Source: Ptychomitrium polyphyllum
Taxonomy: Eukaryota
Assembly (NCBI GenBank): GCA_973851085.1
Contig: OZ316775.1
Coordinates: 10,912,001-10,976,000, forward strand
Length of the DNA: 64,000 nt
Reading direction: 5' to 3'
Of the stretch, positions 14,013 to 55,265 are shown in pieces. Below the pieces are notes generated by a model. The model was not told the origin of the DNA and did not search any database. It saw nothing but the letters and a program-made list of their open reading frames with translations. The position numbers and the translations under genes were made by a program. Each line of letters opens with the position of its first letter. The stretch's first letter is position 1.

Positions 14013-15814
14013 GTTTTTCTTCTTTGCTACCCCTGCACTTCGTTGCAAAGCGTTAATCTGCTGCGTTTATAGGATGTCACGTAGTTGGTAGCTGTCGTTT
14101 GATGATGGTTTCTTAAAGAAACGGCTGAGCAAGAGCACTTGGTTATCAAGGGTATCCCTGAGCTAATAGCTTACCTCATGCTATTCTGATTCATGGAGAA
14201 AGCTATGATTATCTCTGCAAAATGGGCCAACGGCTAAGCGTGTACTGCCGAACGACTTCTTCAGAATTGTTGATTGTTACAGTGACGCTAGTTGACACGG
14301 TAACTTGGAGAACCTGAAGTATGAACCAGGTGTTATGTGAGTGCTTCTTAACTGAGCTCTTCCAGCACCTGAAGAGCCCTGAATTACACAATCTTTGATA
14401 CAGGCAAAACAGGTAAAGAATCGAGAAAGCATAACCGGTATGTACAAAACACACATTTATACCTTTCAATTGACTCATGACCTACTACGGCCCTTGACAA
14501 CTTCTGCACTCGAAGGAGGTCATCTTGATAAACAAAGCAACTGGTCTCAAAAAAAGTGGGACAAGTAGAACACGTTGAATATTCCTACGAGAGTGCCTGG
14601 AACGAGAGCCAAGTCATGCAGAACTACTGACCCAAATCGGACCACAAGCCAACAACGAATTGAAGAATCACAAATCAAACTGGATCTACTCCCGAACAAA
14701 GAATAAGGCATCATTAATTCCGAAATGAAGGATCACTCGCAAAGACTAGCCTAACACCAAAACCAGGACTCTCTCTAACTCGACCTAACCCAAAACCATG
14801 AACTAGTGCGATCCTCTTCAGCACTACCCGCAATCACAAAAACCCGACTACACAGAAACACTCCTTAAACACAAAAATTAATCAAACACCTACGGTTCAA
14901 GAATCAAACCACCGCCTCCTCACTCCACCCAAAAACAGTATTCTCGTAAACCACTGTCCGAGACTAAATACGAGTTTCCACTACTCTACTCCTATCTTCG
15001 TACTTGCACATCACACACCTCGCAAACAACTGTTGATTCACAAAGACGTGACTTCACCTACACCTCAGTACGAAACCCAACCCCAGTTTCAGTTTCTCAA
15101 TTCCCTGAACAGCCAACCCAACTATACAACGGCGGTCGCTGCCTCACGCGCTCGCTCGCGAACGTTCGCGGACTTCCTCTTCTCCAAAATCGAAACTCAA
15201 CATTCGCCTGAGAAAAAAGAGAACGACGTCGCGCCTGCCAGGCATTTGCAGAGACGCAATCTGACACCCCCGTGCCGGCACATGACAATCGACACATTCC
15301 AAGCGAGACAAGGCACAGCAGGCACACGAAAACAGAAAACTCCTCGAGAGGCAAGCCCACTATTCACCCAATCTCCCCGACAAAATGGGCTGCACGGCAG
15401 CCGATGCATGATGCGGAGGCGGCAGGACTCCGGCGTCCGCCGAGTAACTACCCCAGCAAAGTCGGGCCGGGAAGGGGTCCCGGAGACGAGGGAACCCAGG
15501 ATTGTAGGCGAGGGCAGTACCAGACGCCCATAACCCGGTAACCGGAGATACACCGGCCCCGGTTTCTGGTCAGACTTCCACGGAGGACGCCCAAACAAAA
15601 AGCCAATGAGGGTCACCAAGGAATAGACTTCGCTCAAGAATGACGAACAGAGATCTGTGCGTCTGTTAGGGCAAAGACAGGGGCCGAGAGTTCGAGCCCT
15701 AAAGCGCGAGGGGGGACGAGGAGGTCGGTCTTTCACGGCCATCGCCACGCCAGGGCTTCGCGGGCTGCCCCCCTCTTCCCCGTCGCTGTGCACCTCGGAG
15801 CCCCGCCCGCAGCC

Positions 15815-17109
15815 ATGAAGTTCTCCCCCCGTAAGTCCCCCTCTCGCCCTTGTCTCCGCAACTTTCAGCGCCCGGGATGGTTTAGGGCCGCGTGCTGTGT
15901 GGTGGGTGTGCGACTCGGAATAGATGCCGTGTTCCGTTCCGGAGAGACGTCGCGTATGGGCGAGGTAGCCCTAGATTTGGGAAATTCGATCACCTGGCTC
16001 TCTGGGCGTCCGTGCGCTCGCAGGCCCAGGCCTTGGGTTCATGAGGTGCTCTGGAGTGAGGTTCGTGTCCCGTTCTCAGATGGGTGTGGTTGATGCAGGT
16101 GTGAGCAGCTCCAGGCGCAAGTCGAGGAAGGCACACTTCAGTGCTCCCTCCAGCGAGAGGCGCATTCTCATGAGTGCGGCCCTGTCCTCGGACCTCAAGA
16201 ACAAGTACAATGTGAGTGACACGGTGTTGGTCATGCTGGCCTTGCTCGTGTCTTGGCGTAATTCGGCGACAAGCAATCTGGAACATTGAGAACTGGTTGC
16301 ATCTAGTTGCGAAATGAGGTCCTCGGGGCTGTGGCGTCGACATGGCGTGGTCTTCGACAGACTCGGGGTTTCTGGATGACGTGTGTCTGGTCGGACCGTG
16401 TCTCCGCAGTGAGTGGGGTGTTGACGTGTGTGGTGGGTGGGTTGCAGGTTCGGTCTGTACCAGTGAGGAAGGATGACGAAGTGATGGTGGTGCGCGGCAC
16501 GTACAAGGGCCGGGAAGGAAAGGTGGTGCAGGTGTATCGCCGGAAGTGGGTGATCCATGTGGAGCGCATCACTCGTGAGAAAGTGAACGGTGAGTTCCTT
16601 GCTGCAGTGGAAGGTGGAGGGTGGTGTCGATGTTTGTTTGCGGCCGGGCCTGTTCGAGGCTCCTGGGCCCTGGTTACGTGGTCTCTGGGGGTTCGCGTGC
16701 ACGTTCGCTCTACTGCGGAGTAGAGGAGTAGGCGCAATCTAGTCCTTGTGCTGTTCGAACTGGGAACACGCTCTTTGCGCATTGTGAGTAGTGTGCTGCT
16801 GGTCGGGCACGTAATTAGGGTTAAGGGCACTGAGCGTTCAGGTCGGTTTTGTCGTGTGAGGTATAGGCTTCATTGTGAAGCCGACTGTGCACTGGGTTGG
16901 GACGAGGTGATGGAGTTTTCTGTGTGATGCGTGCAGGAGCCACCGTGAACGTGGGCATCGACACATCGAAGGTGGTGATCACGAAGCTGAAGTTAGACAA
17001 GGACCGCAAGGCCCTGCTAGAGCGCAAGGGCAAGGGGCGGTCTGCAGAGAAAGGGAAGGGGAAGTTTACGGATGCGGATGTGGCTCCACCCCTGCAGGAG
17101 GTGGATTAA
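15815..17109 (+). CDS. RPL26: 60S ribosomal protein L26 (uL24), copy 1; exons 15815-15830, 16099-16211, 16448-16589, 16937-17109; 147 aa
   Basis: [121 protein letters not shown]...; all introns GT-AG; exons total 444 nt. Confidence 0.97.
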
Positions 17110-17384
17110 GGATTCTGTAAATTTATCAATGGAATCAGTTCATACTACCGGTGTTTGCAGTGAGAATGTGTGCGATGCACGGGTCGGGTGGTCATGTGCT
17201 GCTGAAGTCGGTGTATGGCCCCATCTGGGATGAATGTGAATGTGACTCATCGCTGTGTTGGCAGGAGTATTGCATGGTAGGCCCTCCCTTGTGCTTGGAT
17301 TGTGACATGCGTGCGGAAGTCGCATTTTTCCCAGTCTATTCGGATTCTGTTAGGTCGGGTTGAAGTGTCGGTCGTTTGCTTGCA

Positions 17385-18345
17385 GCCAAGTGATGTGGCC
17401 GATGAGGCCGACCATGATGCGGACAGATTGGCTCTCATATCTGATAGCCTGGTTACTGATGGCGAGCAAGTGTGGAAGTAGGGTGTTGTAGGTCGTAGGT
17501 TCTTTCTGTTAAGAGGTTGTCTAATGGAACCTGAGTTGACACGGCTGTGTCCAGTGTTTCTCTGACCAGGGACTGTCGTAACCTGGGTGCTCCTCTGCAG
17601 TACTCGGACGTTTTGAATCGCGCCGGTTATGTCTGCACCCAACAAACTGATTACAGGCTGGACGTAACTGCCAGCTTAGTATGAGATGGTGCTACATGAA
17701 TTTCACCCTTCACTGGTACAAACCACACTTCATGGTTGTGTCGTTTTCAAACTGGCGGGTACACCGGAAGCCCATCGGTCGTGTTATTGTGAGTTGGCTG
17801 AGTTGGATTTTGTGTCCGCTGTTTGCACGCGACAAACTGATTCCGGGCTGGAGGTAGCTGCGAGCTTAGTGTGACAAGGACATGGTGCCACAAGGACGCC
17901 TCCGCTGGTCCAAGTTGCTCGGGACGGTTGTTGCGTTTTCGGAACTGGTGGGACAATCGTTTTTGCGAGGCGAAGGGTTGTATGTGGCAGCATGGTGAGT
18001 CGAAGGTGGCTGTGTTTGTCAGGTCGTCGCACCTGACCAGGACTGTCACCTTGATGTGTTCGTGGGAGTGGCCGTGTACCTTGGCCGAGTGATGCGGCTT
18101 GTAGGTCGACTATGATGCGGACTGACCTGGCTGAGCCGTGTATGATAAACCTGGTGGTAACCGATGGCAATACTGTAGTGCAGGGGATAGGCGCTGTCTT
18201 ATTTCATCCTACGTTTGATAGGGTTTCCTCTTGGTTGTGCCGGTGTGGAGGAAGCTTTGTTGCCAAGTGATTAGACCTTTTAGGTCGACCATGATGCGGA
18301 CAGAGAAGGCTACGCCATATCTGACAATTTGGTAACTGATGGCAA
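17385..18345 (+). ncRNA. Three diverged ~80-nt box C/D-like elements downstream of RPL26 (17385-17463, 18084-18168, 18260-18345)
   Basis: Shared layout GCC(A/G)-A-GTGAT...hairpin...ATGATGCGGAC...TGGT(A/T)A-C(T/C)GA-TGGC with a GCCA/TGGC terminal stem. No rRNA guide recognised. Confidence 0.35.
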
Positions 18346-18577
18346 GCTTGGTACACTAGAGTGGGTCTGCAGTGTTTGCGATTGGCGGGTCTTCGTTCAC
18401 TGTTTTGTTTGCTGGGGGTGTAGGTGGACTTTCCCGGACAGTTGTTTTGGTGGAAGTCTTTGCATCACATTGGTGATGGCGGTTGCATACATGCTAATTG
18501 CTTGCCCGCTGAGTGTGCGGAGAGGCTTAGGATGCGCTGATGTACGGTTTGGGGCTTTTGCAAGGCAATATTTATAT

Positions 18578-20451
18578 TTGTGGGTTTGTTATGCCTTATG
18601 TAATATACTTGTATAACAGTTTTTGAATACGAGTTTTGAGGATTATTTTACTTTTTCGTATCTGTAGGAAGATCTTATACTAACGTTTTCTAGTTTTTGA
18701 ATTTTGAAGCTGTGAGAAGAACTGGTGTGTGTAGCAGATTATTTAGTTTTTCGGTCACAGGATTTAGGGGACTCGGTATTTTCTATGATTCCCACGGTAG
18801 GCATGTGCGTAGAAGTCGGATGTCCTCCACTTGGGTGAAAATCCTCGAGTACTTTTAGTTGGAAGTCTTATATTTGAATTTGATCAGTAGTATTTATCGG
18901 TTTACTTTGCAGTGAGTACATGTTTCAATTAAATCAGTTTTGTTTGGCTAATACTTATTTTTGTCTAATATGTAAATTTTGGAAGAGAAGATATTTCGCC
19001 ACTCAGGTGTTTGCAGAATTTTTTTCTGTATACCAAATTTTGTCTCGTCGAAAGATATTTTAATGTACAAGCCAGTGTGGATGGTAGTTTAATCAGTTCT
19101 TTGTCTACATAATGGTAAGTATCTTACAGTTAGCTTGATTAATTATTAGCTACAACTTCTTGATTAATTATTAGCTACAACTATATGTACCTGTTTAAAC
19201 AACGAAAGCATTTCGATATATTAATGATAATACTTTCGATATACATGTGTTCCAAGTGACGTCAAATAAATTCGATGATGCATATAGGATGATGATATGG
19301 CATTGATTTTAGGATAGTCCTCGTTCCTTGCAACAAATACGAATGGTTGATGCCAGCCTCAACCATTCTAAAACATCCACATCCATATCATATAAGAATG
19401 AGTATCAACATATCCAAATGCTCTCATTCCAAGATCGAAAAACTCAACAAAAATCCTTGAAGCCNNNNNNNNNNNNNNNNNNNNNNNNNNNNNNNNNNNN
19501 NNNNNNNNNNNNNNNNNNNNNNNNNNNNNNNNNNNNNNNNNNNNNNNNNNNNNNNNNNNNNNNNTTGTGGGTTTGTTATGCCTTATGTAATATACTTGTA
19601 TAACAGTTTTTGAATACGAGTTTTGAGGATTATTTTACTTTTTCGTATCTGTAGGAAGATCTTATACTAACGTTTTCTAGTTTTTGAATTTTGAAGCTGT
19701 GAGAAGAACTGGTGTGTGTAGCAGATTATTTAGTTTTTCGGTCACAGGATTTAGGGGACTCGGTATTTTCTATGATTCCCACGGTAGGCATGTGCGTAGA
19801 AGTCGGATGTCCTCCACTTGGGTGAAAATCCTCGAGTACTTTTAGTTGGAAGTCTTATATTTGAATTTGATCAGTAGTATTTATCGGTTTACTTTGCAGT
19901 GAGTACATGTTTCAATTAAATCAGTTTTGTTTGGCTAATACTTATTTTTGTCTAATATGTAAATTTTGGAAGAGAAGATATTTCGCCACTCAGGTGTTTG
20001 CAGAATTTTTTTCTGTATACCAAATTTTGTCTCGTCGAAAGATATTTTAATGTACAAGCCAGTGTGGATGGTAGTTTAATCAGTTCTTTGTCTACATAAT
20101 GGTAAGTATCTTACAGTTAGCTTGATTAATTATTAGCTACAACTTCTTGATTAATTATTAGCTACAACTATATGTACCTGTTTAAACAACGAAAGCATTT
20201 CGATATATTAATGATAATACTTTCGATATACATGTGTTCCAAGTGACGTCAAATAAATTCGATGATGCATATAGGATGATGATATGGCATTGATTTTAGG
20301 ATAGTCCTCGTTCCTTGCAACAAATACGAATGGTTGATGCCAGCCTCAACCATTCTAAAACATCCACATCCATATCATATAAGAATGAGTATCAACATAT
20401 CCAAATGCTCTCATTCCAAGATCGAAAAACTCAACAAAAATCCTTGAAGCC
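18578..20451. other. Assembly gap (100 N, 19465-19564) flanked by an 887-bp direct duplication (18578-19464 = 19565-20451)
   Basis: The sequence just after the Ns repeats the 887 bp just before them, as expected for unmerged overlapping contig ends. Confidence 0.9.
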
Positions 20452-20937
20452 AAAAGAAAAATACTTCAATGCGTACTGTAAAATTTATACCTAACCTCAA
20501 CAAGAAATTCCTATCTAAAGGCATACTAACCCTCTCACATACCTTTGCACCATAGACTTTATAGTCAAGAAAAGAGAATCACTAAAACACTAGAAAACGT
20601 TAGTATAAGATCTTCCTACAGATACGAAAAAGTAAAATAATCCTCAAAACTCGTATTCAAAAACTGTTATACAAGTATATTACATAAGGCATAACAAACC
20701 CACAAATATAAATATTGCCTTGCAAAAGCCCCAAACCGTACATCAGCGCATCCTAAGCCTCTCCGCACACTCAGCGGGCAAGCAATTAGCATGTATGCAA
20801 CCGCCATCACCAATGTGATGCAAAGACTTCCACCAAAACAACTGTCCGGGAAAGTCCACCTACACCCCCAGCAAACAAAACAGTGAACGAAGACCCGCCA
20901 ATCGCAAACACTGCAGACCCACTCTAGTGTACCAAGC

Positions 20938-21898
20938 TTGCCATCAGTTACCAAATTGTCAGATATGGCGTAGCCTTCTCTGTCCGCATCATGGTCGACC
21001 TAAAAGGTCTAATCACTTGGCAACAAAGCTTCCTCCACACCGGCACAACCAAGAGGAAACCCTATCAAACGTAGGATGAAATAAGACAGCGCCTATCCCC
21101 TGCACTACAGTATTGCCATCGGTTACCACCAGGTTTATCATACACGGCTCAGCCAGGTCAGTCCGCATCATAGTCGACCTACAAGCCGCATCACTCGGCC
21201 AAGGTACACGGCCACTCCCACGAACACATCAAGGTGACAGTCCTGGTCAGGTGCGACGACCTGACAAACACAGCCACCTTCGACTCACCATGCTGCCACA
21301 TACAACCCTTCGCCTCGCAAAAACGATTGTCCCACCAGTTCCGAAAACGCAACAACCGTCCCGAGCAACTTGGACCAGCGGAGGCGTCCTTGTGGCACCA
21401 TGTCCTTGTCACACTAAGCTCGCAGCTACCTCCAGCCCGGAATCAGTTTGTCGCGTGCAAACAGCGGACACAAAATCCAACTCAGCCAACTCACAATAAC
21501 ACGACCGATGGGCTTCCGGTGTACCCGCCAGTTTGAAAACGACACAACCATGAAGTGTGGTTTGTACCAGTGAAGGGTGAAATTCATGTAGCACCATCTC
21601 ATACTAAGCTGGCAGTTACGTCCAGCCTGTAATCAGTTTGTTGGGTGCAGACATAACCGGCGCGATTCAAAACGTCCGAGTACTGCAGAGGAGCACCCAG
21701 GTTACGACAGTCCCTGGTCAGAGAAACACTGGACACAGCCGTGTCAACTCAGGTTCCATTAGACAACCTCTTAACAGAAAGAACCTACGACCTACAACAC
21801 CCTACTTCCACACTTGCTCGCCATCAGTAACCAGGCTATCAGATATGAGAGCCAATCTGTCCGCATCATGGTCGGCCTCATCGGCCACATCACTTGGC
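20938..21898 (-). ncRNA. Mirror copies of the three box C/D-like elements (20938-21023, 21115-21199, 21820-21898)
   Basis: Part of the right inverted-repeat arm. Confidence 0.35.
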
Positions 21899-22173
21899 TG
21901 CAAGCAAACGACCGACACTTCAACCCGACCTAACAGAATCCGAATAGACTGGGAAAAATGCGACTTCCGCACGCATGTCACAATCCAAGCACAAGGGAGG
22001 GCCTACCATGCAATACTCCTGCCAACACAGCGATGAGTCACATTCACATTCATCCCAGATGGGGCCATACACCGACTTCAGCAGCACATGACCACCCGAC
22101 CCGTGCATCGCACACATTCTCACTGCAAACACCGGTAGTATGAACTGATTCCATTGATAAATTTACAGAATCC

Positions 22174-23468
22174 TTAATCCACCTCCTGCAGGGGTGGAGC
22201 CACATCCGCATCCGTAAACTTCCCCTTCCCTTTCTCTGCAGACCGCCCCTTGCCCTTGCGCTCTAGCAGGGCCTTGCGGTCCTTGTCTAACTTCAGCTTC
22301 GTGATCACCACCTTCGATGTGTCGATGCCCACGTTCACGGTGGCTCCTGCACGCATCACACAGAAAACTCCATCACCTCGTCCCAACCCAGTGCACAGTC
22401 GGCTTCACAATGAAGCCTATACCTCACACGACAAAACCGACCTGAACGCTCAGTGCCCTTAACCCTAATTACGTGCCCGACCAGCAGCACACTACTCACA
22501 ATGCGCAAAGAGCGTGTTCCCAGTTCGAACAGCACAAGGACTAGATTGCGCCTACTCCTCTACTCCGCAGTAGAGCGAACGTGCACGCGAACCCCCAGAG
22601 ACCACGTAACCAGGGCCCAGGAGCCTCGAACAGGCCCGGCCGCAAACAAACATCGACACCACCCTCCACCTTCCACTGCAGCAAGGAACTCACCGTTCAC
22701 TTTCTCACGAGTGATGCGCTCCACATGGATCACCCACTTCCGGCGATACACCTGCACCACCTTTCCTTCCCGGCCCTTGTACGTGCCGCGCACCACCATC
22801 ACTTCGTCATCCTTCCTCACTGGTACAGACCGAACCTGCAACCCACCCACCACACACGTCAACACCCCACTCACTGCGGAGACACGGTCCGACCAGACAC
22901 ACGTCATCCAGAAACCCCGAGTCTGTCGAAGACCACGCCATGTCGACGCCACAGCCCCGAGGACCTCATTTCGCAACTAGATGCAACCAGTTCTCAATGT
23001 TCCAGATTGCTTGTCGCCGAATTACGCCAAGACACGAGCAAGGCCAGCATGACCAACACCGTGTCACTCACATTGTACTTGTTCTTGAGGTCCGAGGACA
23101 GGGCCGCACTCATGAGAATGCGCCTCTCGCTGGAGGGAGCACTGAAGTGTGCCTTCCTCGACTTGCGCCTGGAGCTGCTCACACCTGCATCAACCACACC
23201 CATCTGAGAACGGGACACGAACCTCACTCCAGAGCACCTCATGAACCCAAGGCCTGGGCCTGCGAGCGCACGGACGCCCAGAGAGCCAGGTGATCGAATT
23301 TCCCAAATCTAGGGCTACCTCGCCCATACGCGACGTCTCTCCGGAACGGAACACGGCATCTATTCCGAGTCGCACACCCACCACACAGCACGCGGCCCTA
23401 AACCATCCCGGGCGCTGAAAGTTGCGGAGACAAGGGCGAGAGGGGGACTTACGGGGGGAGAACTTCAT
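22174..23468 (-). CDS. RPL26: 60S ribosomal protein L26 (uL24), copy 2; exons 23453-23468, 23072-23184, 22694-22835, 22174-22346
   Basis: Mirror of copy 1 with the same translation. Confidence 0.97.
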
Positions 23469-26257
23469 GGCTGCGGGCGGGGCTCCGAGGTGCACAGCGA
23501 CGGGGAAGAGGGGGGCAGCCCGCGAAGCCCTGGCGTGGCGATGGCCGTGAAAGACCGACCTCCTCGTCCCCCCTCGCGCTTTAGGGCTCGAACTCTCGTC
23601 CCCCGCCCTTGCCCTAACGGACGCATAGTGCACGAATTCAGCCCCAACGGCCGGACGGACGATCCCGTGGACGAGCGTCCGTCGATGCTCACCCACGGCG
23701 GTGCCTCCGTCTCTGAGTCGTGTATTTCGCCAAGGTTGTCACATGCAGGCTTCCTTCGCGGACGACGCCTAGAGGGTGCCGCGAGTTGGGTCCTGTCGAT
23801 CAGTGCTTGCCGCTTTTTACCTGTATCGTAGACGCGCGGCCGCGGTTGGTCTTCGGCGTGCTGGCTTCGGTGAAGGTCTGGCTGGTTGCTAGGAAATGCT
23901 TGTTGCTTCTTGTCGAAGGAGTCTTTGTGCAATCATCAGCTTTGGCGGGCGGAGGCGCGTCGCTGTCATTCACGTGCAGTTGACTGGGGTTGGAGACCAC
24001 GTCATTGCGTCGCATTAGTCGGTTTTTTTTGCTTTGTGGAGAGCATTTATCTGACTCTCGGTTTAGAGTCTCTTTGGATAGCGTATAGTTTCGGAGTGGA
24101 GTGCAGATGTTTGGGGTGCCCGGTCGGGACTGTTTTGGAGGGACTTACCGCCAGGTTAACTTATTGTCCTTAGAGGCTGGGGAGTCGATAGAGCTTTCGG
24201 GGACTTGGTGGTAGGGAAACAGTACAAAGCCCGGGGTTTGTTTGTTGAGTTGACGTAGGCGTGGATTTGTTTTCTGAGGGATCAGTGTTGTTTTAGAACT
24301 AATTGTTCTTTACTGCGGGGTGAAGCGTTTCGAGGAATTGCGTTTGAAGTCTTTGGGAGTGTTTTTTGGGTTAGAGTTAAGATGGCTTGCCGACCACTCG
24401 GGTTCCTCATTGGTCTGCCGTTCATGCTGATCGGCTTTGTGCTATCCGTGATTGGCGTTGTGCTATGGATTCTTGCGTAAGTGTCTTATTGTTTTTTGAT
24501 TGTGTGCTGATTCTCCTGCCGTTTTGCTGTCTTTGCCACGGTTTTTTACGCTTTGTTTTCATTGTTTTTGTAGTTGAGTCCAGTGCACATAGCCCTTGAG
24601 GACTTCTTCAAGGGAATAAGACTTTTGAAGCTTCCTTTGAACACTGTACTGGAATGGTGCACAATGATAAGCCCAACCTTTTGGACATGGTTTTCAATTT
24701 TTTTGCTCATGTGTACTGCTGTCTGATAAAGGCTCGACACTGCGTTGTGTGCTGAACTCAGCTACGATGTTTGAGACTTCTGTGATAGGCTTGAGAACAG
24801 GGTAGAGAGCTGGAGATTTTTAGTCTTTTTACTCCTGTAGCATTTGAATTCGTACAGAAGGCAGAGTGCATGAAGTCGGTGCTGACAAGTGAACGCCGTC
24901 TGTTGTGATGTTGCTGTGCAGGTCGATCCTGGTGTGTCTTTGCCCTTGTTGTATCTGTTGTGCGCCTCTTCCTCCTCTTGCCGTGAGCCTTATCAAAGCT
25001 CCTGTCAGCATCATCTACTGGTTCACTGAGCAAATACCTTGTTGAAGTTACAGAAGATGCTAGTGTAGCACACTTACGCTCATTACTTGTGATTATTTTG
25101 AAAGAACTTTTCAGAATAAACACCACATTGGAAGCGAAGGTAAGGCTGCTGACTACAGAACTGCAATATATGTTACTTCAGCTGCTTTTCAATTCTTTGC
25201 TAGAAAGTTTGGAGGAAACACTGAAACCTGGAGTTGGAAGATACAGAATAATTAGGGTGTTGCACAGGATACTTTGTGGCCTAGCGGTTTTGTCGTTTCC
25301 CGAATGTTGTACACAAAGCCGTCCACGATATAAAGATTTCCTGATCTCTCTCAGACTGTTTTCCACACGAGTATCCGTTATGTTGTGAAGAGAGATGCAT
25401 GACCTGTGAGTACTGAAGTTGAATTCGTGGTACCGGCAGTTCTGGATGTTTACTCTACAACGGTGCTGTCTTTGAACGATGTGTTACCTTCACTTACTCA
25501 AGAGTGTGTTCCTTATCAGAAGCATCAAGAGTGTTTTCCTTTCACCCATCCACATTCTTTACTGTATTCTTACACGGTTCAGTGAAATACCAATTCGGTC
25601 ATGTAGACTTTAGAAATCACACACCAGTTGTCTCTCTTGATATCTTCCTCCGTGGCAGCAAACTGCATACGCTCCCTTCCATTATGTCATAATGCAGTGG
25701 TGTGACCAGGGACAGCTTTGGCATCTGGGAGGCTTGTGTGAACTAAGAGAGCGGAACGAGTTCTAATTGGAATGAAAGCATGCTTCCTAATGAATTCCGC
25801 AAACGAGAGCATTTGTGTAGGCGCCCACTGCCTTTACAGAAAGAAGGCCTCAGTCCCCCATATCATAACATGGAATGGTTCAAAGACCTACTCGGAGGGG
25901 AATGGAACAGTCATCCATCCAGAATATTTCCACAGTGCAGGTCACCAAAATATTATGGAAAAGTTTGCAGAATCTTTCAGAAGCGAACATTCTCGTGTAG
26001 TAAGCCATGGCATTCTAAACTGGGGATAACGTCCGCGGGGACTTGGCAACGGAATCGCACTGCGCAGGGGCACCAGGATGAGATCACCTGCAGTGGTGGT
26101 GAGAATTGTTCTGCACACCCATCCGCCATCGCCATCGCCACCACCACCGCAGGGGAGGGGTCGCTGGTGAAAGGGGTCCATGCTCTGCACCTGAGTTGTC
26201 ACGAAGTGTCATTGTGTTCTTTCTCGCTCTGCTGAGGGGGTCGCACAATTGGACGCC

Positions 26258-42590: not shown

Positions 42591-43407
42591 ACTAGCTGCT
42601 CTCATCTTCCTCCTCAACGACTCATCTCATCTCTCAGAATTGGAGGAAATCATGACATTTCATGCGATTTCGAAAGACAGACATGTCAAGGAGGAAAACT
42701 ATTTGGTTAATCTTAGGTTTGATTTCTTCGACCATCAAATTGACAGAGAATGCACCATAGAAACTCTTGATTGAATCATGCACTCTTCTTACAAACACTC
42801 TCATCGTAGCTCACGTACGTGGCCGTCAGAATGGAGATAAGGCCAGCACCTGATTATAACGCCAGCACCTGATTGTAACACGAGGACCATTGCAGCACAC
42901 CATGAAGAAGCACCGTCTGCCAAGGAGAAGCGTGCCTCAACTCATTTCAAAACAATCCCTTTGAATAAAAATGGAGTTCTTCGTTCGTGTACAGGAAAAA
43001 ACCCACCTTCTCCGCACATCTTGCGTAATTTCGCAAACCCCGAGCTTGTGAAAAGAGTTCTGTGATCAAAACCTCAACCTCATCAAACAACTGTGCAGGC
43101 AAAGTACACAATACAATTTCCAGCTAGGGGCCGAACCAAATCCGAACCAAATCCGAACCTCTACCGAACCTTCACCCCTCTCTTTTCCCTTCTCTAGTGC
43201 GGCGCCTCCCTCTTCATCGCCTGTTTATATTTCCCTTGCATTCAACAAGATCTCCACCTGCATAGTCCATTCTTCACGCTCTACGTCTCTGCAGTTGGAT
43301 TACTGCAGTTGGATTACTGCAGTTTTCAGTTCCGAATCCATCTTGTGTGCATTGTTTTTCTGTGTTTGTTACCGACGTGAGCCTTCTGGCAGTGTGGAGC
43401 TTCAGCC

Positions 43408-45556
43408 ATGTATCTCATGGCTTATACGAACGAGAATGGTGATAAGGTGTACACTTTGAAGGTCAGTAACTAGGTTTCAATTTAGGATTTGTGTGATGGG
43501 TGAAGCTTGAGTTTCTCTTTTCGATGTTTGACATGACGAAATGGACGTAGGGTTTGAGGGTGTCACATGCGTGTTCTAGGTCTTGCTGGTTCGGATTTGG
43601 GTTTTTGCGTTCTGTAGTTGTTGGATCTTTAGGGTTAGGAACGACGCGGGCTGGCATCCTTGGCGGGGTGCCTTCCTAAGAACGTGGAACGACGTCGCAC
43701 TTTTGTGCGAGTTTTTGTCGTGGAATCCTTTGTTAACGTCGGAGAGCGGTGCGTTCGTACCTGGGAGCTCTGAGTCGTCCGTGATTGAGAGCTTCGGTCG
43801 TGAATGTGGGGTTGTATATTCCATTGCCCTGGCGGCAGCGTCGCGGCTCTTACCCTTTGGGACAGACCATGCCACCTACAACGGATCGTTTTAGTGGATT
43901 TGAGATGATGACAGGAGTGCACCCTTGGCGGGGTGTCCCTCTAACAGTATGGAGCGATCACTTGCATTCATGTGATGCAGTCCAGGTCGTAGATTCCTCC
44001 GTTAACGTCAAAGATTGATGCGTTTGCGTTACGAAGCTGTCGGTCTTTAGGGATTTATAGCTTCAACGTGAAATCGGAGTCGCGTATTCCATCGCTCTGG
44101 GGAGCAGCGTCGCTGCCATTACTTTTTGGGACAAACCATGCTACTTCCAGCAAATTATTTCATGTTCTGAATTGTTTTCTCTTGATTATTGTGTTCTGAA
44201 ATTGCGGGAGGAGCATCCTTGGCGGGGTGTTTCTCTGACAGTGTGGAGCGACCATTCGTCTTTGTGATGCACGTGTAGTCGTAGAGTCCTTTGTCAACGT
44301 CAGCGAACGATGCGGTCATGCGATGATGCTTCTCCTGCTTCGGTTGGAAGAGCATATTTGTGTGAAAGTAAAGTTGCATATTCCATTGCCTTGGGGAGCA
44401 GCGTCGCTGCAGTTACGCCTTGGGACAGACCATGCCACTTACATTTCTGTACACTTAAGTATAGTTGCGTTTCTTTTCTGTTTAGACGCCCCTTAGATTT
44501 TCATCTTGTGTTTCTATTCAGTTTTTAGACCGATGATTACATCATATCAAAATACCATCTTTCGGATCGTAGTACACCTCTGGGTGGTGGTGATTTGTTA
44601 CGTATGGTGGTCTTTAATGATATGTATCATAATTTTCTTCGTGTCATGTACGAAAAGCAGAGGTTATTGACACCGCATGAGCTAATTCTCGTCAGTTACA
44701 GGTATAGCATATGCATCATCTTTAGGTGGTGAGCTACTGCCTTTTTAATGGCAACAGGTTCAATCCATGGTGCTATATTTTTGTATATTTTCTACTTCTA
44801 CATATGCTGATATGATTCTGAAGCTGGTGATATTGATGTATCCGAAAATTACTGATTTTATTTCATGTTTAACTTATCACCGTCTTTCGACTGAGGTTTC
44901 TAAGTTCGTGTCAAACGTTTGGCATCTGTATGGGCGAAGACTGGGTGAAGACAGAATACATAGACCTGTTCTGAATTTATATGTTGGACGAACATGCACT
45001 ACCAACTGACAGTCTTCGTCGTCAGGCCCAATTTCACTTTAGCGATGACGGGGGTAGTTCCCTTTTGGCGGCGTACTCTGACAGAGTGAAGCGACCATCC
45101 GCGTCTCTGTGATTTGACTTGTGGTCGTATAATTCGTTGTTAAAGTCGCGGAACGACGAGGTCACGTGTAGAAGCTCTTGTTCATTCGTGAGCAATAGAA
45201 TACTCAAGTGGGAGTGAGGTTGCATATTCCATTGGGTTGGAGAGCAGCTTCGCTGCCATTATTCTTTGGGACAGACTATACTACTTTTATTATACATTGC
45301 TTATAGGTTATTTCTTTGAGCTGAGTTCAGTTGTCTTTATTTCTAGAGTACTGATTTTGGTTTTTATTATTGCTATGTTTGGTTAAACGTTAACCTTTTG
45401 AGTTTGATTTTGCAGAAGGAGTCACCTTTGGAGGAGCCAACTCACTCGGCTCATCCAGCTCGGTTCTCTCCTGATGACAAATTTTCGAAGCATCGGATTA
45501 TCTGCAAGAAGAGGTTCAACTTGTTACCCACACAGCAGCCTCCACATAATTATTAG
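43408..45556 (+). CDS. NOP10: H/ACA ribonucleoprotein complex subunit 3 (Nop10), 64 aa; exons 43408-43461 and 45416-45556
   Basis: [64 protein letters not shown], with the [12 protein letters not shown] hallmark and one GT-AG intron of 1954 nt. Both exons are too short for the ORF track. Confidence 0.97.
43548..43555 (-). promoter_or_regulatory. Telo-box (TAGGGTTT on +) at the start of the NOP10 intron, upstream of the snoRNA cluster
   Basis: Motif present, with a variant TAGGGTTA near 43630. Confidence 0.4.
43641..43883 (+). ncRNA. snR30/U17-like H/ACA snoRNA, copy 1 (NOP10 intron)
   Basis: m1 ATATTCCAT at 43816-43824 and m2 AGACCAT at 43864-43870 lie on opposite sides of the 3' hairpin base; ACA box at 43878-43880. 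The 5' end is approximate. Confidence 0.8.
43905..44152 (+). ncRNA. snR30/U17-like H/ACA snoRNA, copy 2 (ACA position reads CCA)
   Basis: m1 GTATTCCAT at 44084-44092 and m2 AAACCAT at 44133-44139, in the context GACAAACCATGC. Confidence 0.7.
44202..44446 (+). ncRNA. snR30/U17-like H/ACA snoRNA, copy 3 (most canonical)
   Basis: ANANNA (AAAGTA) at 44365-44370, basal stem AAGTTGCAT/ATGCCACTT, m1 at 44378-44386, m2 AGACCAT at 44427-44433, ACA at 44441-44443. Confidence 0.82.
44527..44613 (+). ncRNA. Box C/D snoRNA, snR39B/SNORD2-like, degenerate boxes
   Basis: AGACC/GGTCT terminal stem and C-like ATGATTA. The guide ACCATCTTTCGG (44554-44565) is complementary to conserved LSU rRNA CCGAAAGAUGGU. 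D' and D boxes are non-canonical. Confidence 0.55.
44821..44899 (+). ncRNA. Box C/D snoRNA, U51/snR39-like (LSU site equivalent to yeast Am807)
   Basis: AAGCT/GGTTT stem, C-like GTGATAT, D' CTGA at 44852. The guide CACCGTCTTTCG (44878-44889) lies one nt before D box CTGA (44891-44894); the D+5 rule selects the second A of CGAAAG. Confidence 0.65.
44936..45017 (+). ncRNA. Dual-guide box C/D snoRNA: U33/snR55-like guide at D and U25/snR56-like guide at D'
   Basis: 8-bp terminal stem GAAGACTG/CAGTCTTC and C-like GTGAAGA. CATAGACCTGTT-CTGA (44959-44974) pairs with 18S AACAGGUCUGUG, and CATGCACTACCA-A-CTGA (44993-45009) pairs with 18S UGGUGGUGCAUG. Confidence 0.8.
45042..45292 (+). ncRNA. snR30/U17-like snoRNA, copy 4 (most diverged, no ACA at the expected position; possible pseudogene)
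   Basis: m1 ATATTCCAT at 45224-45232, m2 variant AGACTAT at 45273-45279, GCAGC-TTC-GCTGC hairpin. Confidence 0.65.
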
Positions 45557-46530
45557 TATCTGTACCTGAGAAGAGTTTATACCAGGGTATGTTGTATGTC
45601 GCATGACGCTCTGACACTCATTTCTAGAGCTTTCCAAGTCATGATGATCCTGAGGGTTGTACCATAGTAGTGAGATTGCCATGCAATGTCCTCAGTTCTA
45701 TTTCTTGGAGTGGTCAGACTAGGAAAACCAACCTCAAGTTAAACAATTTAGAAATGTATCGACAGCTTCAGTTCGATTGTCTCAGTAAAGATTATATTCT
45801 TGGTTTAAACTTGTTTGATTCCGTCCTTTTGATCTGGCTTATGCTTTCGTTATCCTCGTAGCTCGCTGCATGTTATTGACATTTTCTCATGGCTTTTACG
45901 TTTCTATCAAACAATTGGCACCTCGGAGCAATTTTGTTCATGATGAGCGTGTGATATCTGCATACTTCTGCAACAATAGATTGCTATACATGGGGCATGC
46001 TGCGGATTGTGGACCTCTCCTCACGAACCAAAAAGCCTAAATGTGGAACATATTTTTAGACTGCAAGTAATCACGACAGTAATTCTTGAAGCAATATGAA
46101 GCTTAATTTATGTTTCAACTGCAGATAACTTAGCTTAGTTGAAATGCACACTGCAGTTACAAAGTAACCGGTTATTCAATAACTTCTATTTTCCGTAAGG
46201 GTGAAATTTGTCTAAAAATGGATACCACCTTGGACAGTGGTCGAAGTGGTAGCAAGTAGATTACAGAAAATAACACATTGCAAGCTATTTGCACTGAAGA
46301 CACATCAATATTTCCCTAAACCTGGACATGCTCATCCTAGAGTACTTCATAGGACATGTCAATCAAACATGTACCCGGTTGGTACCCGGTTGAAATGATC
46401 AACACTTTTTTCTACTATGCCTCTAAAATGTACACAAACTTCATAACATTTGGTCCTTATCGTGATCATGTCAATAACTTAACTTGTCTATGCTAATTTG
46501 AACCTTAATTCATGCACACTAAGCTTCAAT

Positions 46531-46624: not shown

Positions 46625-46719
46625 GGCAAGTTGTTATAAATTTATGTAATAGCTAAGAAAGTATTTTCACTTATTTTCGAGATGTTCAATATTTTTTAAT
46701 TTGTTTAATTTTTTTTGTT

Positions 46720-46845
46720 TGTTTATTTCTTTCTTCCTTTACTTACTTATTTTTATTTATTTACTTATTTTCTTATTTTCTTATTTACTTATTTATTTAT
46801 TTATTTACTTACTTATTCATTTACTTATTTATTTACTTTATATAT
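46720..46845. repeat. Imperfect (TTTA/TTAC)n microsatellite
   Basis: Read directly from the sequence. Confidence 0.85.
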
Positions 46846-47013
46846 AAACAAGGTGGAGATTTTTCTATATTGTATAAGAAATTGAGATAAGTTATTGGTT
46901 TTTCAAAGATAATTTAATGAAGCTATGTGCTTTGCTTTCCAAGAGTAATTTGAGAACAATAATGTTACAAGTGAATTTAAAATTCTTAGTCCTTCTAATA
47001 TGCCTTAAAATAT

Positions 47014-53000: not shown

Positions 53001-55265
53001 CTGCCACTGTAATTTTCCAGACATTCCTTATTTATAATCACAACAATAAAGCCCTAGCATCTGGGGTATGTGAGAACCAGTTTCTACCGTATTTAGAGAA
53101 TTTCAGCAATAACATTGTTTGAAATTTTTTAAGTTCTTCCACAAGGTTTTACACCTTATGTGCTATAGCCCATTGGAGAAGCAATTTGGAGATGAGTAAG
53201 AAAGTGAATTGGTTGTCTATATGGTAGTAACTATTGTGAGAAAATCTTCTCATTTTGGAAGTACTATTGGGATGACAATCTAAGAGCTTATTTGCATGAA
53301 AAACTATATCTCATTAAATATTATTTTAATATATTTTTGTCTTCTTCTATAAATTGTCATTTTCTTGGAATCATCATGTTTAGGCCAAAAGGTTTTACTT
53401 TTGCCATCTCTTAAGAAACAATGGAAAAGATCTTGAATTTAGAAACATGAAAAATGAAGGGGAAGTTAATAATTTTCATCAAATGCACATTGAGGTGGAA
53501 AGTGGCTAGGGAAAGATATCAAGCATCATAGGGCCCCTTTACACCTTCTCATGTAAGAGAGAAAAGAAGCAATAAATTTCAACTCAAGACTTGAGTAGTT
53601 TAGGAAAAGACAGTCTATGGGAGAATATGGGAAGACATTAAAATAATTAAGGTGGAAAAAGTCCTTCTCCCATGGACAAGCTTTTATATTGCCACTTCTA
53701 AAAGTGGTCAATGGAAAAAGTCTTTTCGACAACAATTGGTCGCATATAAGTGCCCAACTCATTTTCTCATCAAATTTCAAATTGTTTCACTTGGAGATAA
53801 GGGAACAATGTATAAAGCCTTCTAGAAAAATTTGAAATTTTTAACTAATTACATCATTTAGGTTTTTAAATATGACAAAACCTCTTCTCTAATGTGCAAC
53901 GCCGGAGGGTGTAAGTCAACCCTTAGAGTGTAGGAAGTATTCCATAAGTGTTGAGTGATCTTGTTTCCTGTCTTGCGTTGAGCTAAATTGCTCCTTAAAT
54001 TATTGTCAGAAGTTATGCTTTAGAATGTTTCCACCATTTCAGATGAAAGTTTTAGTGCATTTACTTGCCTAAACTCATGTACAAATGAAAGACTATGTTT
54101 ATGCTCCTCTGTGTGCTGTTTATAGTGTTTGCTTCACATTTAATTAAGTTCTCATCTGGTGAATGCAAGAACTGTCTCAGTGGAAAGATCTTACAATTCT
54201 TTTAGGGGACAAACAGCATCTTGTTATCTTGGCCACAAGCATTTGATATTCCTACATTCATGCATTGCCAACAGTATATGATTCATAGAATTGGCATAAT
54301 CAGCAACTCCTGATAGAGGATGATTGTTAAACTTGACTAACTTGTGTGCAAACAAGTGCTTTGTATAACTATACAGTCAGAAAGTACCCCAAGGAAAATC
54401 CAGGTAATGCAAAACAACCTGTGGGATCTATAAAAGGTTAAAACATAAAGCATTTTAGACCATGCTTGTACTAGGAATTTGACTTTGTTGAAAATGGCCC
54501 CATTAGCTATATGAGTCTATAAGACGTTCCGTTTTTGAATAATCACACTAATAGAGTTTGGAGTTCAAATTGTACCCAAGTTGAATCCAATGTTTTTACA
54601 TCGATTTGTGTGAGTGCACAAAGATAATACTGATTACAAAATTAATGTAAATGTTATATTACATACAATAGGCATAATATGGTTAATTAAAAAAGAGATT
54701 AACTTCTTGATGCTGAGGGTATAATATACAATATTTTTATTTGTGTATACATATTTCAACTTCTTTTTTCACTACTACATGTATTCTTTTTTATTTGTAC
54801 TTAAAGAAAAAATTGTATGCACAACTGTTGCGAAAAATATCATAGATGCATATGAGGTGGAATGTACGTATTAAGTTCATTTTCCAAGAGGTTGCAATGC
54901 AAAATATCATTATTCTTCATGACAAAAACCATTCTTTGTGTTGTGGAAATATTTATGTAATCTTTGCTTGTTCGATTTTTCTTGTTCAAGTTCATATTAT
55001 AATAAAATGCAAGGATTAATACTCTATGGCTCAAAGGCAAATACATATTGTCTATTTAAAGTCTTTGTTACTTACTTAAAGTTGTTTTCTTGAAAAGCGC
55101 ATTGTTTCAAATTTATTCATGAAATCGCAATAAGTGCAATGTTTATATAATATTCTTGTATATATGTATGAATTCTCTATATTTTCAAATCTATATTATG
55201 GATGGGCATGTTGATTGCTATAATTTCTTGCTTTCAAATCTCTATTCAACAATGGTAAGCTAATA

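Follow-up and report, generated by a model that had tools for sequence, protein, structure and literature searches.

Four diverged RNA units in the moss gene NOP10 are very probably intron-encoded paralogues of a green-plant snR30/U17 RNA. snR30/U17 is one of the few small nucleolar RNAs (snoRNAs) that are essential for making 18S rRNA. The units, called copies 1 to 4, lie in a 64,000-nucleotide (nt) stretch of forward-strand DNA from Ptychomitrium polyphyllum (contig OZ316775.1, positions 10,912,001 to 10,976,000; hereafter the window), all within the single intron of the NOP10 coding region. Judged from sequence, the strongest single piece of evidence for this reading is the pairing of their m1 and m2 elements with expansion segment 6 (ES6) of the moss's own 18S rRNA. 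Covariation in the 3′ hairpin, green-algal homologues that share features not used to find them, a 7-nt spacing between m2 and the 3′ box, and low copy number further support the plant snR30/U17 homologue that had been proposed from the window alone (the original prediction). Because the H box that defines the class fails in the moss, we class the units as a variant predicted to work like snR30/U17 and not as plain members of the class.

This kind of RNA is already known; what is new is the lineage, the relaxed boxes and a probable identity with the Arabidopsis RNA HID1 (snoR158). The relaxed H and ACA boxes, the probable HID1/snoR158 identity and the mixed snoRNA cluster described below had no place in the original prediction. 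A 2021 review states that snR30/U17 was not identified in Arabidopsis and that plants might use another route (PMC8351944). Among the matches listed in a literature search that did not cover subscription journals, none reports a plant snR30/U17 and none connects HID1 with it, and the word "plant" is absent from a 2020 review and from a 2025 structure paper.

Four copies in the NOP10 intron

The encoded NOP10 protein of 64 residues was closest, among 533 matches, to those of Ceratodon purpureus (95% identity) and Physcomitrium patens (92%), and the window is therefore from a moss. One contig of the same sample covered positions 43303-45700 with identical letters throughout; on the evidence of that sample, therefore, the arrangement of the units was not created by faulty assembly. 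All four of the predicted copies of about 245 nt were located with their motifs (Table 1; the 5′ ends were inferred), and they are 61.7-69.1% identical to one another. They had been described as arrayed in the intron; the four copies are indeed there, but they do not form a pure array, since four other snoRNA-like units, all scoring under the Rfam cut-offs, separate copy 3 from copy 4.

Table 1. Coordinates of the NOP10 gene and of the snoRNA-like units in its intron (positions in the window).
Feature	Position	Strand	Particulars and evidence
NOP10 coding exon 1 (host gene)	43408..43461	+	Protein comparison
NOP10 intron, GT..AG	43462..45415	+	Carries a cluster of eight snoRNA-like units
Copy 1	43641..43883	+	H-box slot 43743-43748 (AGAGCG); m1 43816-43824; m2 43864-43870 (AGACCAT); ACA 43878-43880
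Copy 2	43905..44152	+	H-box slot 44012-44017 (AGATTG); m1 44084-44092; m2 44133-44139 (AAACCAT); box CCA 44147-44149
Copy 3	44196..44446	+	H-box slot 44304-44309 (CGAACG); m1 44378-44386; m2 44427-44433 (AGACCAT); ACA 44441-44443; weak SNORA73 match
C/D-like unit, guide to the equivalent of Arabidopsis 25S G814 (snoR39BY target)	44527..44613	+	SNORD96 25.2 bits (cut-off 43); 13 of 14 pairs
snoR74-like H/ACA unit	44651..44780	+	Rfam snoR74 24.5 bits (cut-off 44)
C/D unit, guide to the equivalent of Arabidopsis 25S A816 (U51-type)	44819..44901	+	snoZ196 32.1 bits (cut-off 55); guide mapping
C/D unit with two guides, for two 18S sites (SNORD33-like, snR56-like)	44938..45015	+	SNORD33 31.6 bits (cut-off 44); snR56 23.4 bits (cut-off 54); plant 18S pairing
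Copy 4	45042..45292	+	H-box slot 45150-45155 (GGAACG); m1 45224-45232; m2 45273-45279 (AGACTAT); box TTA 45287-45289
NOP10 coding exon 2, through the stop codon	45416..45556	+	Protein comparison

The motifs are specific to the copies. Both the GCAGC-N-TCGC-K-GC hairpin and the m2-bearing motif GGGACARACYAT occur exactly four times on the two strands of the 64 kb, always within copies, and m1 has one additional, lone occurrence at 53937. The TTGGCG sequence of the first hairpin lies at 43660, 43925, 44219 and 45065 in copies 1-4, respectively. A model built from the copies and their homologues scored the copies, which were part of its training set, at 68-89 bits and the rest of the window at no more than 11.7 bits. 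Two strings of human U17 had been said to be present verbatim, and both do occur, but never together in one copy: copies 3 and 4 carry TGCATATTCC, and GACAAACCATGC is confined to copy 2.

Each copy comprises, from 5′ to 3′, a multibranch domain, an H-box slot, an internal hairpin and a 3′ hairpin. A short helix, with 4-5 of its 6 positions paired in the moss copies, probably closes the multibranch domain. In three moss copies the H-box slot follows AAC(G/A) and 4 nt, with AAAG in copy 4, and the slot has the same AAC(G/A) + 4 nt register in the algal homologues described below and in the SNORA73 consensus; a canonical H box was found at this position in 13 of 15 algal homologues. In the 3′ hairpin, a basal stem leads to an internal loop with m1 and m2 on opposite strands, beyond which is a covarying upper stem. 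At 7 nt past m2, copies 1 and 3 have the box ACA, as had been noted before, copy 2 has CCA and copy 4 has TTA; in the algal loci among the matches listed the box is CTA (16 loci), ATA (4), CCA (3), TTA (2) or ACA (2), so that its third position is A in all four moss copies and all 27 algal loci. On their sequences, copies 1 and 3 appear to be the best candidates for full function.

In the first hairpin of copies 1 and 3, 10 nt (43655-43664 and 44214-44223) are perfectly complementary to a conserved part of 18S. Shuffled sequences did as well as this match in 13, 13, 6 and 61 of 100 cases; it is thus not significant, and we rejected it.

Pairing with 18S rRNA, covariation and green-algal homologues

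Plant 18S sequences were taken from contaminants in bacterial genome records, in which 48 of 69 loci fitted the ES6 pattern. The m1 target, rm1, was AUGGGAUA in 47 of these 48 loci and AUGGAAUA in one (L147), and the m2 target, rm2, was UGGCCU in all 48. As an observation in its own right, 64 of the 69 matches (L126-L194) to an 18-nt 18S motif in bacterial reference genomes represent plant or algal contamination, which extends to several type-strain assemblies. The moss 18S sequence was obtained by aligning the window's own sample to L147 (ribosomal DNA contig depth of 6086, compared with ∼36 for single-copy sequence); its rm1 is AUGGAAUA, unchanged from L147, and its rm2 is UGGUCU, which differs from L147 by one change.

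Pairing was computed against moss and seed-plant 18S. Complementarity of m1 to the moss rm1 was complete in all four copies (8 of 8 Watson-Crick pairs). With the moss rm2, m2 formed 6 of 6 pairs in copies 1 and 3, 6 of 6 with one G-U in copy 4, and 5 of 6 with an A-C mismatch in copy 2, so that the canonical AAACCAU of copy 2 is the worst fit to the moss 18S. When the seed-plant rm2 was substituted, every copy showed at least one mismatch. Among known snR30/U17 members, m1 is AUAUUCCUA in 11 of 14 tabulated and m2 is AAACCAU in 14 of 14 (PMC7601244), and the moss elements depart from these sequences in the direction that preserves pairing with their own 18S. Since m2 forms six perfect pairs in yeast, the yeast rm2 should read UGGUUU; given the moss rm2 of UGGUCU, the A-to-G change in the moss m2 is therefore a compensating answer to a U-to-C change in rm2.

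In a set of 19 sequences (the four moss copies and 15 of the 27 algal loci), 90.6% of the cells of the 3′ hairpin, a structure drawn from these sequences, were paired, and the basal and upper stems covaried around the m1/m2 loop. The covariation score of 0.435 was reached in none of 500 shuffles, and controls in which the pairing was slid gave at most 0.192. Of the 18 pairs of the hairpin, 9 showed changes on both sides. The original prediction had the basal stem varying while largely keeping its pairing. The distance of 7 nt from m2 to ACA is invariant in known snR30/U17 RNAs, and in yeast shortening it by two abolished processing (PMC2664660). At relaxed thresholds, the Rfam family SNORA73 (RF00045) matched copy 3 with an E-value of 0.036 in 841 bases; in this alignment m1, m2 and the ACA 7 nt later fall on the corresponding motifs of the model, and the 5′ domain is unaligned.

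A metagenome scan with m1..m2 alone returned at least 119 loci. With the hairpin model, 27 of these scored 84-99 bits (15 of the 27 belonged to the training set of the model), and the remaining 92 scored at most 18.6 bits. The 27 loci, which among the matches listed comprise 16 distinct 3′ domains, share features that were absent from the query: a profile of the unqueried m1-m2 spacer, made from moss only, matched 25 of the 27 and none of the 92 others. Between moss and marine algae, m1 and m2 hardly vary. The algal copies, most of them in introns of EBP2, follow coding sequences of ribosome-biogenesis proteins, with an EBP2 motif just upstream in 18 of the 27 loci and, among eight upstream frames tested, Ebp2 in seven and Brix in one. 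One algal host gene had its best named relatives in Bathycoccus, Mantoniella and Micromonas, and we take the loci to be from Mamiellophyceae. The location in the NOP10 intron would couple supply of the RNA to that of an H/ACA core protein, but with EBP2 and a Brix gene as the algal hosts, a place in NOP10 is evidently no necessity.

Seed-plant variants, which the metagenome pattern allowed, were not found among the matches listed, and an Rfam search of six algal loci gave no match to SNORA73. Scans of viral contigs yielded six chance matches without m2 and 15 further matches, all at or below 19.1 bits, and no match to an 18S primer, the snoR158 primer or a part of the HID1 probe. No match was obtained in a plasmid scan, and none of five genomes with plant ribosomal DNA contamination matched the model.

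The algal 5′ domain contains a hairpin with a near-invariant loop, GCTGCCCGC (L007:1562-1600, L025:2338-2380 and the other loci); the two arms of its stem look like those of the first moss hairpin with their order exchanged. In five loci (L068:2241-2340, L079, L008, L080 and L100) the 5′ part of the RNA is partially duplicated just upstream of the full copy.

Predicted role, relation to HID1 and alternative explanations

By analogy with yeast, the RNAs are predicted to act as chaperones of early small-subunit assembly. They would be cut from the NOP10 intron, their 3′ box would load Cbf5/NAP57-Nop10-Nhp2-Gar1, and m1 and m2 would hold rm1 and rm2 fast in a three-way junction in which no pseudouridine is made. 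This ES6 junction would sit in the basal pocket and be sensed by Utp23, with recruitment of Utp23, Kri1 and Krr1, after which the platform helices h20, h22 and h23 would fold with Kri1 and Krr1 (PMC12095548). Folding of the platform would in turn permit the early cleavages that release 18S rRNA.

The copies resemble vertebrate U17/SNORA73 in length (203-240 nt in vertebrates and Tetrahymena; PMC7601244), in their intronic multi-copy genes, in a closing helix and H-box slot in the same register, in the internal hairpin, and in a 3′ hairpin bearing m1 and m2 with a box 7 nt past m2. They differ from it in that m1 is (A/G)UAUUCCAU and m2 is mostly AGACCAU, the moss H box is non-canonical, the box is often CCA, UUA or CUA, the 5′ domain cannot be aligned, and the moss copies are in a polycistronic mixed cluster within one intron. 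With yeast snR30 they share the m1/rm1 and m2/rm2 geometry in ES6, the 7-nt spacing and a conserved distal stem where yeast has an essential element (PMC2664660, PMC12095548), whereas yeast snR30 is 606 nt long and independently transcribed (PMC7601244).

Several results weigh against assignment of the copies to snR30/U17. No Rfam family reached its gathering score in the window; the SNORA73 match, obtained in the Rfam check that the original prediction had called for, was 18.3 bits against a cut-off of 74 and in one of the four copies (copy 3 only), and there was no match to an snR30 family. None of the four moss copies has a canonical H box (ANANNA) at the homologous slot, and no more than 2 of the 4 moss copies and 2 of the 27 algal loci have ACA as the box that follows m2. 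In vitro, human U17 can form its ribonucleoprotein (RNP) without the H box (PMC7601244). Whole copies folded little or no better than shuffled sequences (z -0.23 to -2.27), and folds of single sequences left the m1/m2 loop not open. Two of five covariation measures were weaker (double-change pairs, 24 of 500 shuffles; further pair types, 80 of 500), and the hairpin structure came from the same sequences that were used to measure covariation. On the side of HID1, pairwise alignment of three Arabidopsis oligonucleotides to the copies lacked significance (87, 720 and 257 of 1000 shuffles), and the HID1 probe was missed by a profile of the whole RNA.

We nevertheless consider it probable that Arabidopsis HID1/HIL1 (snoR158a/b; AT2G35747) is the flowering-plant homologue of this family. 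The order of the hid1 cluster is HID1, snoR39BYa, snoR21.1, snoR149 (PMC8053127), and a second paper lists snoR158a, snoR39BYa, snoR21a, snoR149, with snoR158 as an orphan H/ACA RNA (PMC2875012); because the two lists are identical, we infer that HID1 is snoR158a. HID1 and HIL1 are like the moss copies in size (snoR158, 226 nt predicted and 260 on a northern blot, PMC2875012; HID1, reported length 236, PMC4563214), in being tandem paralogues and in the closing helix and H box found in published oligonucleotides. The comparison covers three such short oligonucleotides. The reverse complement of the HID1 northern probe (PMC9271193 supplement) has AACG and, 4 nt further on, a canonical H box. A matrix of the closing helix and H box made from moss and algae only scored this probe at 15.5 bits, and 2 of 20,000 shuffles scored as high. 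An exact 6-nt complement of the helix strand is present in the 5′ snoR158 primer (248 of 100,000 shuffles). Both shuffle figures are uncorrected for the choice of this element for the test. Araport annotates HID1 as a snoRNA (PMC9388643), and a HID1 homologue with snoRNA-like domains has been reported in Physcomitrium (PMC10226578).

The setting of HID1 is alike in part. In the Arabidopsis HID1 cluster snoR39BY is directly downstream, as a snoR39BY-type unit is after moss copy 3, but HID1 differs in that it has been published as a chromatin-acting, light-signalling long noncoding RNA from an independent cluster. Against the link, synteny with the HID1 cluster rests on that one neighbour, the G814-directed unit with its degenerate CGTA box, and the hid1 bte1 hil1 triple mutant is viable and hid1-like (PMC9271193). 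We lean, with less confidence, toward the fuller proposal that HID1 is the flowering-plant snR30/U17; that its deep conservation, its nuclear RNP, the rice and HIL1 rescue and the pointed leaves of hid1 would all stem from a dose-limited 18S-processing snoRNP; and that green plants use relaxed H/ACA boxes together with m1 and m2 that co-evolve with ES6. Because seed-plant 18S reads AUGGGAUA and UGGCCU at rm1 and rm2, we predict that seed-plant members end in m1 AUAU(C/U)CCAU and m2 AGGCCAU. If HID1 does so, a standard example of a plant regulatory long noncoding RNA needs reinterpretation, and the hid1 and hil1 mutants are ready tools for the study of plant 90S assembly. The moss and green-algal loci also supply candidates for a plant snR30/U17 and a model for finding further members, and their CUA, CCA and UUA boxes are relevant to the question of how much departure from ACA Cbf5 tolerates.

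One alternative is that the RNAs are chromatin-acting regulators as published for HID1 (PIF3 repression in red light), with the U17-like hairpin vestigial or merely stabilising. Reviews place HID1 in nuclear RNA-protein complexes at PIF3 and report rescue by rice HID1 (PMC6095000, PMC4563214), the 5′ stem-loop SL2 is named as the conserved part of HID1 in flowering plants (PMC6854645), and the viable triple mutant cited above would also suit such a role. We consider this explanation improbable, given that m1 and m2 are near-invariant across moss and marine algae and match the moss's own 18S, that the host genes are ribosome-biogenesis genes, and that HID1 has been counted among the orphan H/ACA snoRNAs, with a place in a snoRNA cluster (PMC8053127, PMC2875012). 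Moreover, hid1 is described as a knockdown (PMC6095000) and edited HIL1 still yields truncated RNAs (PMC9271193), so viability does not show dispensability; snoRNA levels are also raised by 24-31% in hid1 (PMC8053127). A chromatin role and an snR30/U17 role need not exclude each other. The leaves of hid1 plants are retarded and pointed, which is typical of ribosome-biogenesis mutants.

It is still less likely that the copies are ordinary pseudouridylation guides or orphan H/ACA snoRNAs with a coincidental match to m1 and m2, as their position among modification guides and the missing SNORA73 assignment in Rfam might suggest, since the closing helix, H-box slot and internal hairpin stand in the U17 order. 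Four repeats here and a few partial matches on other contigs of the sample might also suggest a scattered piece of a transposon or neutral duplication in tandem, and the original prediction had named a dispersed fragment among the things that would undo it. The chance of this is now negligible: the further matches are few and at single-copy depth (40-55 compared with 35.6, except one 38-nt contig at 70), they are confined to snoRNA units and spare spacers and exons, and conservation tracks structure and extends to green algae. At least one of them directly follows a paralogue of the unit at 44938, a placement that favours duplication of whole clusters over a transposon. Lastly, there is a modest possibility, compatible with the snR30/U17 assignment, that only copies 1 and 3 work and that copies 2 and 4 are decaying. 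Copy 2 has a CCA box and the A-C mismatch in m2. Copy 4 has a TTA box and a G-U in m2, its first hairpin is weaker, and at 68 bits it scores lowest with the model. However, some algal loci likewise have CCA or TTA as the box (3 and 2 of 27, respectively), and the stems of both copies are kept despite 31-38% divergence.

Neighbouring units and other features of the window

Among the units between copies 3 and 4 are guides whose predicted targets are, in Arabidopsis, those of members of the HID1 cluster (the snoR39BY target) and of the HID2 cluster (the U51 and U33 targets); in contrast to both of these, the moss cluster is intronic and within the gene of an H/ACA core protein. The unit at 44527-44613 has CGTA after the guide, in place of the CTGA of a box D′, and its 3′ end lacks a clear CTGA; the unit may therefore be in decay or have an unusual box. 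Identification of the units at 44819 and 44938 as snoR39BY and snoR21 was dropped after target mapping; the 18S guide of the latter unit points at a U33-type uridine and not at the snoR21 site.

Downstream of NOP10 is an AT-rich repeat with an 8-nt period (46710-46854). Elsewhere in the window, a perfect inverted duplication of 3,044 nt (15655-18698 and 20585-23628) either arose very recently or was produced by the assembly, and it contains a gene that, from its translation, we take to encode ribosomal protein L26. Three related units of about 55 nt lie at 17412, 18110 and 18289 on the + strand and at 21871, 21173 and 20994 on the - strand. They gave just a weak match to sR44 in Rfam (15.6 bits) and resemble miniature C/D RNAs: they begin with ATGATG, have C(T/C)GA close to their other end and carry short stems at the termini.

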